From Octopus vulgaris (Eukaryota), in contig OX597815.1 of NCBI GenBank assembly GCA_951406725.2, positions 45,136,001 through 45,200,000 on the forward strand: a stretch of DNA of 64,000 nt, in the 5' to 3' direction. Below, piece after piece: positions 28,920 to 56,545 of this stretch. Every line of letters starts with the position of its first letter. Within the stretch, counting starts at the first letter, position 1. The notes under the pieces are model-generated. The model did not search any database, was not told the DNA's origin, and worked only from the letters and a program-made list of their open reading frames with translations. A program made the position numbers and the translations under genes.

Positions 28920-29497
28920 AGGACGAATGCTGCTGTTGATTAGCTCCAAGAGGCGGTCGCCTCTAGCTAGCTATATGACATACGAACCTGTGTCCATTAT
29001 AACCTTCGAACAGGGAGGTCAGTCGCTTCCCCTTGCTGGTCTGGCATCTACAGACAAGTTTCAGGGTAACTCAGAGTAACAGGATTTGTTGAATTTTCTG
29101 CTGCTTTAAATAAAGCATATAACTCTACCACTGGTATTTGAGTACTCTTTTTTCCACCTTGTTTCATATTTATGTGTTTACTCCAGTATATATATATATA
29201 TATATATATATATATATATATATATATATATATATATATATATATATATATATGGGGCAAATACCCTGAAACTTGTCTGTAGATGCCAGACCAGCAAGGG
29301 GAAGCGACTGACCTCCCTGTTCGAAGGTTATAATGGACACAGGTTCGTATGTCACATAGCTAGCTAGAGGCGATCGCCTCTTGGAGCTAATCAACGGCAG
29401 CATTCGTCCTATTTTTCTGGACTGCCATGTTAGCTTAGCGATAACTATTAATATCCAGTACCGCTGCCGTAGTCTCCTTTAGAGAGACTTAGAAATA
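28920..29497. mobile_element. Inverted-pair HHR-associated element in (TA)n (relative of the 353-bp repeat) fused to a second pLTR family
   Basis: 149-bp arms 28920-29068 / 29262-29410. The + arm starts inside an HHR: GGGGCAAAUACCCU-GAAA-CUUG-UC. Confidence 0.8.
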
Positions 29498-32400
29498 TTA
29501 ATATATATATATATTCCGAAAGGCCTTGTTGGAAGTCAACCTTCCGAGTTCTTCTACAGGGTTTAGAAAAACTGAAGGACCGCTGCAGTAAGTGTTTGAA
29601 TCTGAGAGGGGAATATGTTGCATAAAATCATAAGTAACTGATCCTCCAGTATTTTCTTTCATCGAAAGTCAGTAACTTCTCAGCACTCATATTTCGTGAA
29701 AAGCAATCTACTCATCGATGCTTAGAGAATTTACATGGTACCGCAAAACTAAATGTAAATTATATACAATTTCAATTGGTTAAGCCATTTAAACTTTGAC
29801 GGTTCCGGGTGTCTATAAACCTAAACACACTTTGTTTATCGACTCCCGAAATTTGCAAATAAACAGAGTTGTTCTCGTCGGGATTTGAAATGCAAAACCA
29901 AAATAAACATCTTTAGGTTTCTTCGTTTGAAACACCAAAACAGCTCTATCAATTCGCTTTCTGGCTGGTGTTGCATGCAAGCTTGCTATTCTTTCGTTCT
30001 TTATAGCTGATATTTATTTGGTGTGTGTTGTGTCTGTAGTTAAGAATGTTAGTCTTACTAATGATGTTGTGTGTTGTGCTTTTACTGTCATAATAGCTAC
30101 TTCTGATAATATCGTCGATGACATCGTTGTCTTCCTTATTGTTGTTATAGCCACTGTTATAGCTGTCACTGTTGATGTGCTCGCTCATGTTGATGTGCTT
30201 TTTGCTGTCTTTTTTCTGTTATTGTGTAACTATTTGTTTCTTATAGCATCAGGTGACATGGAAAGAAAGAAAACAACTGTAGATGTATTGTATAAGCGTT
30301 GAAGCTAACCTAGAGTTACCATAAATTAAAGTAAATATTCAAACAATCTACTTTTTCATGTATTGTTTTCTCTCTGTCACAGTTTTCGCAGATACTCACA
30401 GATGTGTATAGGTGGTGGTTTTGGAAGATGTCTGCCATTTTTTTACACGCCCACAGTTTTTAAAACGAGTGCGGGAATATGACTGTGTGTGACCATATGC
30501 ATTATATTAAAGTAATTGTGTGTGTATATATGTGTGTAATAGTATGTAATTGATATTTACGGATGCATGTCAAATATTCTGTAATGTTTGCTATATGTAC
30601 GCATGCACAGACGGAAACATGTGAATCCACGTGTTTAAAATACACAGCCAAACGCATATGCATACAATATGTGTATGGAAGTGCGTGGATTTGTGTGTAT
30701 GCGCGTAAGTATGGGAGTTAAGTATAATGTGTGTAAGTAGCCCATGATATATTTAAACACGGTATATACATTTTCAAAGAGTGAAAAGAGTGTTTCAAAA
30801 AGGCTTTGAGAATTGATATGGAAATGCAAAAGGAACAGAAGGGTCATATTCGAAACTGTGTAAGTTTCAAATAATTTAAATAAAATTAAGCCAGACAATA
30901 AAATAAACTCACTGAAAGCCCAACAATAAGATAAACTACTTGGAAGCCTGACTGAAATATACCATTACAACACGGTTGGTGGTTTTCTACACAATTTTTT
31001 CCAACAATACTTAAATATTCTTTGAAGCAAATCACTATTTTTCCTTTTCACCTTTTTTTGAAACCGGAGAGAAGTTTCCTCCCAACCATAATTATAAAGT
31101 TTGTGCAATAAGGTTTAACGGGCCATGCATAAACAACGAAGACCACTGTCGAAAAATATGTGTTCAGAAATTAATTGGATTTATATCGTGATGGATCAAA
31201 AGTATGGAACCGATATATATTTTGAAGTTGGAATGCTGAGTTCTGATATTGTGAATAAGTTTTTAAGTTTCCTACACAAAATAATTATCAACAGAAGGGT
31301 AGATTATTTTGGAAAAACTCTATATTTGACGGTTTCAGTTTGTATGCCGTCAAAATATGTTTAACTGGTTATTTAAGCGCTACATGTCTACAGGATCAGT
31401 TCACAAGACAATCAGTTACAACAACAGCAACAAACCACTTTTAGTATCAGAAATACATGCAATACTAATCATAAGATGTAAACATTTCATAAATCTCATA
31501 CTTAAAGGGCGTAGTTCTGTAAACCCCAAAAGATTTAGTTGCTTGTGTAATAATACATTGCAAGGGAGTTTTCCATATATTTCATTGGCAAATTTGATTT
31601 CTGCATGTGAGGAAAAGAAACGTTGTAGTTTATACGTGAATTCTGTCCTCTAATACTACTCCTGGTACGAATTTGCAGCTAACGTGAACTAAGCAACAGA
31701 GTGTAAAAATAGTTGGCCAAAAAATAGCACGTCAACCACATCGATGTTGGGATATGAAATGACAAATCTCCAACTCCTCGGAAGGTGGAGATACTTTCTC
31801 TGCTTGTCTAGTTGCAACTAACAGAGACGTATTACATTAGAAGCACAGTAACTCCTACAGCCAATTTTTGTTGGTAACTCAAAAGACTAAATATTAGTTT
31901 TACTTTTTCTGATTATATTTTAATTTGAACGATAAGCAATCTCATTTAATGAAATATACGCAGTCACTCCTCAGGCCTGACTTTCTAAGTGGCCGGAAAA
32001 GAGGAGATTCGTTGGGCCAACAGTTTTCCCAGGTTAGTGGCATTATTCAATTCAAACCAAGATGTTTTAACGATTGCCCACAGTTTTTTTTTACTTGGTT
32101 CATTTTTGTTGTATTTGCTGTTTTTACATCGAGTAGAAAAGAATGTTCGTCTCTTTTCAAATATTCTTGAATCCACCTGTTGAATCGAAAGCATCTTGCT
32201 CGGTAAGCAGAAGTTGATCGTATTTTAGTCATTAAGGAAAAGGTTAAACCTCTACATTTGCTTTTGACTTACTTTCTTTTGCTGAGTATTATCACTTACT
32301 GCTATAACCTATGTATTTGATGGGAATTTTATTCTATTTCTTCTGATTATTGTCTGTTGTAAATATGAATCTGCGGGGTTTTGATGTTGAGTTTGCTTAT

Positions 32401-33274
32401 TGAGGATATTAATCTATGAGTGAGTTTATGATGTTCATTTTCACACCACTTGTCAATCACTGCGCGGTTCCCTTGTGATGTACCTAATTAGCACTGCCAT
32501 TTTGGCAGACCTTCGAAAAATACATGTGATATTTTACATTTTAGTTTCAGTTGTTAAATAGCGAATACTCGTAATTTAATATTGGGGTCAGCTTTGCATG
32601 GGATGGATGGGTAGTAAAAACAGTTTCTTAATCAGCAACAATCGTTTAAAAATAATGCTTGTTTCATTTTACCACGCGGTTTCCTAGCCCAAATGACCTT
32701 TAAATTTAATCGCGTTGCTAAATTCGTGACTTAACTTAAATTAAAATCCTCCAATCTCTACTCACTTGGAGAGAGCCCGAACAACAGAAAAGAAAGGATA
32801 GATAAGGCAGAGACGAGATGAAAACGACTTCTTATCTAGTAATTAGAAGCACTGCAATAGAAGATAAGATACCTTCTTAAATATGATTTAGAATCCCCCT
32901 TCCAAGCATACACTCTCCGTGTCCCTTTTATCACATGCTTTTTCTGAACGTCCCTGTCTACGTTTGCCTCTGACTCTACCACTTTTTTCTATCCACGCTT
33001 TCTTACTTTTTCTCTCTTTTTCTCTTTCTCTTTCTATTTCCATACATATATACATGTATATATACACTTACACTCAGCCCCACACAAATATATGTATGTA
33101 TGTACCTATCTATCTATCTATCTATCTATCTATCTATCTATCTATCTATCTATCTATCTATCTATTTATCTATCTATCTATTTATCTATCCATACATAGA
33201 CACAGACACACGCACAGACACACATAGACACACACACACATAGACACACACACAAACACGCACGTGTGTGTGCG

Positions 33275-33400
33275 TGTATCTGTTTCAGTCATCAGACTGT
33301 GGCCATTGTGGGGCACCGGCTTGCAGAATTTAGCTGAACTACTATGTTATGAGGACGTAAACAAACGCGGCCTGTCAAGCAGTAGTGAGGGGATACAAAG
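33275..33400 (-). mobile_element. SINE family B tail fragment
   Basis: TGTTTCAGTCATCAGACTGTGGCCAT...GACGTAAACAAAC. Confidence 0.6.
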
Positions 33401-33488
33401 ACATACACACACATACAGATACTTAGTGGCGTGTGTATATATGTATATATATATATATATATATATATATATATATATATATATATAT

Positions 33489-55203: not shown

Positions 55204-56147
55204 TTTTATTTCTCCATAATAAAACTATACAAAAACTCCTCTTTCCAGTTGAGATAAAGGAAATAAAGATGTTCCAGAGATTTGTTTACATTAAATTATG
55301 ATTATATTTTAGTGGTTTTATTATTTATTTATTCTTTTTTTGTCAGTTGTGTGCTCGCTTATCTATGATAAAAGAAGACAGATGTGTTATATTTATTTTA
55401 ATAGCATCCACGAATGAAAAAAATTCTATGAATGTGTTTTTGCGAGCACAGATATATTATATATATATATATGTATGCATGTATGTATGTATGTGTACCG
55501 TGTATATATATATATTTGGATACGCGTGAACGTATATATGTATACTTACACACATACACAAATACATATATGCATATATACATACGTATATGTACATACA
55601 TCTATACGTATATATATATATATATATATATATATTTATATACCTATATATATATATATATATATATATATATGTATATATATATATATATATATATAAA
55701 TACACACACACACACACACACACACACACACACACACACACACACACATATATATATATATATATATATATAACAATGATAAATATCAAAGTGAGTTATA
55801 TACAGTAGCGGTAACACATCGTGACGTATTTTTGCCATTTCAATATGGCTAACCCCTAAGGGTGGATGCTACTGTAGTTTTTAGCCCCAGGAGGACACAC
55901 TCCTCCAGCTGGCCATAGACACACTTTCTGTGTCCTGTCAATATTTGCAACAGTAGCATCCACCCTTAGGGGTTAGCCATATTGAAATGGCAAAAATACG
56001 TCACGATGTGTTACCACTACTGTATATAACTCACTTTGATATTTATCATTGTTTGATTTCACTTTTTCAATATCAGCGACAGTGGGCGCTGGAAAAAGTA
56101 TAAGTATTTGTGAAGGAAATCTAATTCTCGGCGACAACTATGATTGT

Positions 56148-56192
56148 CACACGCTGACGAGAGGTCAATACAGCGAAACTCGAGTCAGTGTG
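56148..56192 (+). ncRNA. Type I hammerhead ribozyme, copy 1 (stem I/II mismatches)
   Basis: CACACG-CUGACGA-GAGGU CAAU ACAGC-GAAA-CUCGAG-UC-AGUGUG. Confidence 0.75.
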
Positions 56193-56500
56193 TATCATAA
56201 GTTGAAGACGGGAAGGATGACTTCCCTTTGCAAATACTGACAGGACACAGAAAGTGTGTCTATGGCCAGCTGGAGGAGTGTGTCCTCCTGGGGTTAAAAA
56301 CTACAGTAGCATCCACCCTTAGGGGTTAGCCATATTGAAATGGCAAAAATACGTCACGATGTGTTACCGCTACTGTATATAACTCACTTTGATATTTATC
56401 ATTGTTTGATTTCACTTTTTCAATATCAGCGACAGTGGGCGCTGGAAAAAGTATAAGTATTTGTGAAGGAAATCTAATTCTCGGCGACAACTATGATTGT

Positions 56501-56545
56501 CACACGCTGACGAGAGGTCAATACCTCGAAACTCGAGTCCGTGTG
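56501..56545 (+). ncRNA. Type I hammerhead ribozyme, copy 2 (canonical, intact)
   Basis: CACACG-CUGACGA-GAGGU CAAU ACCUC-GAAA-CUCGAG-UC-CGUGUG. GUC cleavage after 56539. Stem I extends via UAUGAU/AUCAUA. Confidence 0.92.

Follow-up and report, generated by a model that had tools for sequence, protein, structure and literature searches.

Does the DNA that follows hammerhead ribozymes in the genome of Octopus vulgaris encode a further RNA structure that is kept by selection? The question is raised by a 64,000-nucleotide (nt) stretch of contig OX597815.1 (positions 45136001–45200000; hereafter the window) in this 2.8-Gb, microsatellite-rich genome, in which the stretches 29254–29497, 39865–40003 and 56187–56400 had been predicted to share a branched RNA fold. 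The conserved fold proved to be real and to exceed chance. The elements that carry it belong, as judged from their sequence, to an old superfamily of 353–369-nt retrozymes lacking long terminal repeats (non-LTR retrozymes), which are non-coding, bear hammerheads and are likely passengers of Penelope-like elements (PLEs), and the fold itself probably serves, with some reserve on our part, as a loading and positioning/priming platform for a Neptune-type PLE reverse transcriptase (RT).

Three copies of hammerhead repeats in the window

The three stretches align colinearly with a mean column identity of 65%, bearing out their description as colinear and diverged. They are truncated or tandem copies of three high-copy hammerhead repeat families, here A, B and C, and the window's open reading frame (ORF) listing shows no ORF of note around them. 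When the whole window was searched for repeats, microsatellites dominated the output, and nothing but the inverted pairs proved informative.

The 56187 stretch (family C) sits in a 353-base-pair (bp) tandem array whose unit junctions each carry a type I hammerhead. The direct arm of the array, at 55950–56713 on the forward strand, holds 2.2 copies of the 353-nt unit, running from +117 to +174 two units on (unit numbering starts at the hammerhead cleavage site); the inverted arm, at 55772–55950 on the reverse strand, covers +42 to +220 as a 99% inverted pair. The first hammerhead core of the array (56154–56186, forward) is damaged, with two changes that disrupt stem II and a C-to-A change at +1 in helix I. 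The second hammerhead (56501–56545, forward) is intact, with a C3:G8 core and a short palindromic helix III, and its cleavage is predicted after 56539.

The other two stretches are 5'-truncated single copies on the forward strand. The family A copy (29254–29504; 361-nt unit) begins within hammerhead stem II, and an inverted arm (28918–29068, reverse strand) that ends at a non-canonical +136 in (TA)n is separated from it by 185 nt of other DNA. The family B copy (39864–40019; 355-nt unit) covers +19 to +175, with (TA)n on either side.

A multiway fold supported by covariation

In the monomer fold, a rod continuing hammerhead helix I, or the local hairpin P1a, closes a multiway loop with the arms P2 (+57), P3 with an internal loop, P4, P5 and P6, in that order; P4 is a long-range helix around P4a, P4b and a weakly paired segment. 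In the family C copy, with all parts on the forward strand, P1a is a G-rich/C-rich hairpin at 56210–56226, taken from the consensus fold of five families; it and the long rod are alternatives when single sequences are folded. P2 (56243–56261) has a GACAC/GUGUC core and a 3' strand that is invariant in 20/20 representatives, and P3 (56264–56295) has covarying pairs in both stems and an internal loop that is AGCU/UGG in family C. The P4 junction (56303–56376) is closed by pairing of 56303–56310 with 56369–56376, both sides being changed in 5/8 of these pairs, and contains P4a (56315–56326), P4b (56329–56344) and the weakly paired segment in which site 1, described below, lies. P5 (56383–56393) is a small hairpin, CUC/GAG and then AUUUA in most lineages, with one mismatch in family C; P6 (56427–56444), downstream of site 2, has a CAGUG-type 5' strand and a compensatory change in C. 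The corresponding arms of the family A copy are P2 from 29335, P3 at 29357–29389, P4 with 29394–29401 paired to 29463–29470, and P5 at 29472–29488.

Using one representative each of 8 lineages and 29 pairs, with registers anchored by hand and P4 placed by best pairing, we found that 227/232 cells pair and that 11/11 same-branch double changes keep pairing. The null mean was 2.8 double changes, with 11 reached in 0/10,000 draws, and further nulls had means of 0.7 and 1.5, with 11 reached in 0/20,000. These counts support the central claim of the original prediction, that selection acts on an RNA fold beyond the ribozyme. The hand-anchored count in its 20-copy set had a misregistered Ap row, giving 3 spurious events of 17, and the 8-lineage set was used.

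A model-made alignment of 20 copies gave the same picture: 92.6% of cells pair, the covariation score was 0.313 versus 0.182 for shuffled alignments (reached in 0/500) and 0.055–0.102 for slid partners, and 15/34 pairs had changes in both partners (6/500 shuffles). In this alignment, the measure of ‘further pair types’ did not rise above shuffle (317/500). A covariance model built from family C alone recovered 20/20 representatives at 24–178 bits, with opposite-strand noise at 17 bits or less. Most of the covariation is carried by P4 and P3, while P2 and P5 are sequence-conserved.

The double substitutions proposed for the closing helix are present: between the strands at 56303/56369 and those at 29394/29463, pair 3 changes from A-U to G-C and pair 5 from U-A to C-G. 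The GGAGG/CCUCC hairpin occurs in its expected versions, with the AGCU/UGG loop, in all three window copies, but the supposed invariance of the loop fails in the deeper lineages E (AUCA/UAG), G (CUCCU/UGG) and H (UGA). The ACCC/GUCC/CCAC hairpin (P4a) likewise pairs as proposed in the window copies; its register slips between families and it is absent in E and G, and it therefore does not amount to positional covariation. Conservation of an ACC linker was not upheld across lineages, the linker being retained only in A and C (GCG, GCA, ACU and CCC elsewhere).

MAFFT alignment and consensus folding of five whole units recovered P1a, P2, P3, P4, P4b, P5, P6 and hammerhead helices I and II. Applied to the A, B and C domain copies, the same procedure misregistered P3/P4 and lost P4, and the covariance-model alignment was used instead. 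Compared with shuffles, folding energies gave z scores of −4.1 to −10.9 for whole units and −1.3 to −4.3 for the domain alone; the window A and B fragments by themselves folded no better than shuffles (z −0.51 and −0.38). In the model, the fold does not stand free as a domain: it makes up the multiway head of a monomer of ~355 nt, itself structured, to which the conserved arms P1a, P2, P5 and P6 and the rod from helix I also belong.

A retrozyme superfamily

The units are tandem and non-coding, with lengths of 353 (C), 355 (B), 359 (G), 361 (A) and 363–369 nt (E); the longest stop-to-stop frame in A, B and C is 66–102 amino acids (aa). A type I hammerhead core is present once per unit in A, B, C, E, F and G, and flanks of other copies showed that A and B, too, are tandem hammerhead units, with a U3:A8 core. 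Genome-wide, first-look candidates numbered 2,066–2,729 per family query (2,300–2,700 for each of the three window stretches and 2,494 for the family C whole unit), and a shared motif pattern had 8,128 matches versus 2 for its reversed control. Pairwise identity of family consensuses is 57–70%. Motif loci (the first 30 of the 8,128 matches), neighbouring insertions and two more DNA searches yielded the further lineages D, E, F, G and H, with sublineages, so that the genome contains at least 8 lineages; eight representatives are 46–81% identical over the domain, and the single copies L043, L078, L089 and L090 point to still deeper lineages. Most family C copies keep the hammerhead core and helices intact.

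The original prediction recognised no named family in the domain, and it named a match to a described retrozyme as a result that would count against it. Rfam gave no match at gathering score in the whole window; at E values up to 5, the domain was without a match in 7/8 cut-out loci, and the eighth had only low-complexity microRNA matches at its (TA)n edge. The whole element, however, is a non-LTR retrozyme, a described kind. The hammerhead itself resembles the type I family RF00163, a model that spans the ribozyme only and not the domain: the family C second-hammerhead sequence (in L016) scored 32.2 bits (E 1.2e-4), just below the gathering score of 34. A U3-A8 hammerhead variant has been described for PLE hammerheads (PMC4209133); that covariation, as given in the available text, is present in A and B, while E has a U4C core and family F an unusual helix III.

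Half or more of the family C words were present in 20/24 runs from 7 organisms, and no RNA record for the family C unit was found among the holders listed. Contigs of 383 nt (unit + 30) occurred in two runs whose RNA status is guessed; a circle and a tandem array fit them equally. For relatives outside the genome, a tight pattern had 0 matches in metagenome and viral contigs, and a loose pattern matched 119 metagenome/viral stretches, of which the 80 with DNA scored 16.7 bits or less with covariance model R2. B, C and D carry an octamer-like promoter word at +41; since A, E, F and G are without it, this candidate was rejected.

Some observations hint at greater diversity. L043:116–345 (reverse strand) and L078:100–350 are very diverged single hammerhead elements with P2/P3-like or P1a/P4b-like arms, L043 having compensatory changes in the otherwise invariant P2. 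The copy at L088:1896–2020 resembles a B/E mosaic, suggesting template switching between retrozyme families. A P5 pattern search gave 26,206 matches versus 9,597 for its control, a hint of further lineages, and at G000:C1:2009202–2009818 a P5-type motif with alternating 127- and 344-nt spacing perhaps marks a 471-nt unit of another lineage. Hammerhead cores are unusually varied in this genome, with C3:G8, U3:A8, U4C and CCGAAGA or UUGAAAA forms in PLEs and retrozymes (L122, L126, L134 and L221; families A–G).

Insertions end at two sites

In all families examined, the 5' ends of insertions were scattered and the 3' ends clustered at two sites, usually running into (TA)n. The ends fall at homologous positions in A, B, C, E and G, roughly 175 and 220–235 nt past the cleavage site. 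Site 1, at approximately +170 to +180, belongs to the P4-enclosed segment and remains in the same loop despite wide sequence variation. Site 2 lies at +216 to +237, after P5, with 43–55 nt between the sites. In the family C copy, site 1 (+170 to +174; 56356–56360, forward), the putative start of reverse transcription, is a preferred 3' end of insertions; site 2 (+216 to +220; 56402–56406, forward) is the second and is used by the other arm of inverted insertions. The window family A copy ends at site 2 (+228) in (TA)n. The family B copy ends at site 1 and for that reason has neither a hammerhead nor the 3' strand of P4.

The pairing of the two sites was clearest in family C, sampled with a whole-unit query that was not end-selected (39 distinct loci from the best 40 of 2,494 candidates). 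Tail-to-tail insertions paired site 1 with site 2 in 23/24 cases (same site twice, 0; odd end, 1), with a P of 6e-8 if the arms were independent, and 13/15 direct insertions ended at site 1, with 1 at site 2 and 1 elsewhere. The window C array is an example, its direct arm ending at 56713 (site 1) and its inverted arm at 55772 (site 2), each followed by (TA)n. Counts elsewhere were 10/14 (A), 10/14 (B), 9/10 (G) and 9/13 (E), with 2 same-site cases in all, giving 61/75 over all families. Before counting, overlapping or duplicate loci (including L072, L079, L082 and L084) and 2 edge-cut G loci were dropped, L146 was moved from direct to inverted on account of a separate fragment in the same locus, and repeated 22-nt low-complexity matches at B +277 were ignored.

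Insertion targets are (TA)n or AT-rich; of 7 insertions checked, 6 have target duplications of 12–13 bp and one has 8 bp. The units also contain perfect (AT)n runs, which are better matches, at other places (C +190–195, B +270–276, G +273–279), yet no outer ends fall there, and the choice of sites thus does not rest on primer complementarity alone. The insertions carry the signature of PLEs: they lie in microsatellites, are truncated at random on the 5' side, have arms in inverted orientation and show a tail or two 3' ends. Since the arms overlap, twin priming of the L1 type on a single linear template was discarded.

Neptune-type PLEs as candidate partners

The PLE families N1–N4 of this genome encode an RT with a C-terminal GIY-YIG domain and an upstream CxxxxCxxC motif; we call them Neptune-type provisionally, as the motif is common to Neptune and Nematis. 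N1 and N3 are young, with intact 781–784-aa ORFs and (TA)n targets, the youth of N3 being similar to that of family C. Their 3' ends also fall at two positions, 34–36 nt apart (18 and 7, with 4 other, in N1; 10 and 9, with 1 other, in N3), and the two examples of inverted copies, L103 and L284, both pair the two ends. The (TA)n target, the two 3' ends, the inverted end pairing and a hammerhead near the 3' end are all shared with the retrozymes, and the N1 hammerhead has the U3:A8 core of retrozyme families A and B. The N1 PLEs (L121–L125) also have a second ORF, of 333–378 aa, upstream of the RT ORF.

We compared 68 PLE loci (best GIY-YIG matches plus an N3 search; 150 of 6,136 GIY-YIG candidates were scored), and found no homology to the domain or the retrozyme unit in their 3' regions; for the families sampled, descent of the retrozymes from the pseudo-LTR (pLTR) of an identified autonomous PLE is not supported. 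Three loci that might have been domain-owning PLEs (L126, L109 and L294) were rejected as independent retrozyme insertions in (TA)n beside PLEs, and L077, considered as a template switch, is a nested insertion with a 13-bp duplication.

In one locus, L018, a family C arm and a 5'-truncated N3 PLE form a tail-to-tail insertion in which the two 5' ends meet directly, no (TA)n lying between them. The N3 piece is 97–99% identical to other copies. This chimera suggests that the two arms of an insertion can come from two RNAs. At the junction (L018:1451–1470), a few fold-back bases are complementary to the hammerhead core, and an unrelated element of ~125 bp lies in the (TA)n on each side, in opposite orientation.

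A proposed role for the fold

The original prediction offered several functions, among which RT recruitment or positioning is favoured, given that the 3' ends of insertions fall at two set places in and just after the fold. A biochemical precedent exists in PAc. The purified PAc protein, a predicted dimer, nicks AT-rich DNA on both strands, needs the RNA lying downstream of the hammerhead and begins copying at two internal sites, by which the genomic ‘tail’ is defined, and PLE start sites in vitro are internal, with no RNA end needed (PMC11167929). In the mechanism that we propose, multimeric transcripts would be cut by their hammerheads into monomers or circles, as in the described retrozyme family. 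A PLE RT/GIY-YIG protein, presumably from the Neptune-type elements active in this genome, would bind the branched RNA head and nick both target strands, and target-primed reverse transcription would start internally: one nick would prime at site 1, within the single-stranded P4-enclosed segment, and, in inverted insertions, the other would prime at site 2, just after P5. The fold would set enzyme loading and start, and would let a protein-free RNA compete for protein from another transcript.

A bolder version, which we hold only tentatively and rate as rather doubtful, is that the branched head is a retrozyme-specific hijacking device without a counterpart in the autonomous element. It would capture a PLE dimer in trans and lead its two RT active sites to the P4 loop and to the position after P5, with asymmetric nick priming. 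If this were true, the head would be the first structure-defined RNA ligand of a telomerase-related PLE RT, and would serve as a portable tag by which any RNA could be written into (TA)n sites.

Several observations weigh against the platform. The whole ~355-nt unit is structured, so selection is not confined to the domain. Autonomous PLEs have two ends with only ~75–110 nt of AU-rich RNA after the hammerhead, and the fold is therefore not needed for two-site priming in cis; the PLE sites are 34–36 nt apart, in contrast to 43–55 nt in retrozymes. A scan of the 68 PLE loci with model R2 found no domain copy as part of a PLE, only independent retrozyme insertions. PAc belongs to the Poseidon clade, not to Neptune. 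As to the insertions, the A, B, E and G queries selected one of the two ends, the arms of inverted insertions overlap in unit coordinates, a misfit with simple twin priming on one linear template, and the L018 chimera is 1 of 210 retrozyme loci screened, with a retrozyme arm that ends at an atypical +270.

Much of this would also suit a general survival structure of the monomer or circle, which might give nuclease resistance, hold the ends for a host ligase or keep the hammerhead folded or blocked, with start sites set by short local sequence or distance. We regard this as unlikely, though with a chance that is far from negligible. Whole units fold much better than shuffles, and P1a, P6 and the hammerhead are all part of the consensus fold. 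For the circles of described retrozymes a high degree of self-pairing is predicted (PMC7229834), and autonomous PLEs reach two ends without the fold. Judged by eye, site 1 follows a U-rich UUUAC-like context in B, F and PLE N1, and site 2 follows a small CUC/GAG hairpin in N1 and retrozymes. Stability alone, however, does not predict a common arm order and common arm lengths at 46–81% identity, nor does it predict the invariant P2 3' strand or the conserved P5 and AUUUA, and site 1 stays in the same loop though its sequence varies.

Another account, which we consider improbable, is that the fold binds a host factor (the ribosome or another ribonucleoprotein, or an export or germline transport protein) that would bring the RNA to new PLE protein with no RT contact, much as Alu RNA uses SRP9/14. 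Absence of the fold from the sampled autonomous partners is as expected of a trans-only device, and P2 and P3, which are sequence-conserved, lie 60–120 nt from the start sites. Yet no Rfam match or other indication of a host partner emerged, and host-factor binding by itself does not account for the placement of site 1 within the P4 junction across all lineages.

It is very improbable that the domain is a second ribozyme, for cleavage or ligation. We found nothing in support of the second catalytic domain that had been offered beyond the multiway junction itself and an internal loop conserved in most lineages. The domain has no invariant unpaired catalytic core, as loop and linker nucleotides differ among lineages, and in E and G the loop, the linker and P4a are altered or lost; it matches no ribozyme family besides the hammerhead. 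Moreover, retrozyme circles were best made by a protein ligase (PMC7229834), and PLE starts in vitro are internal (PMC11167929). Finally, an artefact of alignment and relatedness is hardly credible, for although there are only 8 lineages, with registers set by hand and alignment A8 fitted to the model, the C-only model finds all representatives above noise, the 80 metagenome chance loci stay at or below 17 bits with R2, the independent MAFFT and consensus folding of whole units recovers P2, P3, P4, P4b, P5 and P6, and the tree-aware nulls are far exceeded.

If the platform reading is right, it bears on matters that the available literature describes as open: how a PLE RT recognises RNA, why the tail is found at one end and which protein moves animal retrozymes. 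The superfamily offers a 170–200-nt RNA with a covariation-supported structure, two mapped start sites and natural variants in at least 8 lineages. Intact candidate proteins are present in the same genome (L122:1664–4006 and L293), and the published in vitro PLE assay is applicable to them.

Neighbouring features of the window

Other elements lie close to the three copies. At about 39350–39510 there is a short tail-to-tail element in (TA)n with a hammerhead-like core per arm (CUGAAGA...GAAACAGUA); the same motif occurs near L020 and L030, and is probably another PLE-derived end. Directly after the C array, in the same (TA)n tract, an element with 206-nt inverted arms (85%) occupies 56796–57578. 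Two tandem copies of a 236-bp unit at 28102–28574 are 97% alike and show no match to the retrozyme families, and an interspersed element contains ~8 copies of a telomere-like AACCCT repeat at 40258–40308. Two more hammerhead-like cores with a foldable stem II, outside A, B and C, lie at 10568, just before a 163-nt inverted pair, and at 61261.

Comparison with known systems

Animal retrozymes have been proposed to be non-autonomous PLE derivatives (bioRxiv 10.64898/2026.07.22.740005; PMC7229834), and metazoan retrozyme repeats have no conserved motif indicating a partner, according to the available part of a review (PMC7761336). The elements described here share with metazoan non-LTR retrozymes, as these are portrayed in the accessible portions of the same three sources, ~350-nt non-coding tandem units, a highly self-paired monomer and co-occurrence with PLEs, as well as a type I hammerhead with a short palindromic helix III, thousands of dispersed copies and no LTR features. 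They differ in what is known of each: for published retrozymes, cleavage and circles have been demonstrated and the folds given are single-sequence energy folds only, whereas the present retrozymes are known from sequence and show a fold that covaries across at least 8 lineages, along with two mapped 3' ends and a rule for how these are paired. In the literature searched, some of it in partial text and with subscription papers, Repbase and Dfam outside its scope, there was no published account of the fold or of a site-pairing count. The class of element is known, and the fold is apparently undescribed.

The closest functional parallel is with PAc. PAc is autonomous, with its sites 111–118 nt into the ORF in an AC-rich stem-loop and 30–40 nt apart, whereas the retrozymes are non-coding and have their sites in a multiway fold, at a spacing of 43–55 nt. 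In PLE insertions, the tail is often confined to one end (PMC8557442). In vitro, PAc shows no strand bias between its two sites; in the retrozymes, by contrast, opposite arms almost always take opposite sites.

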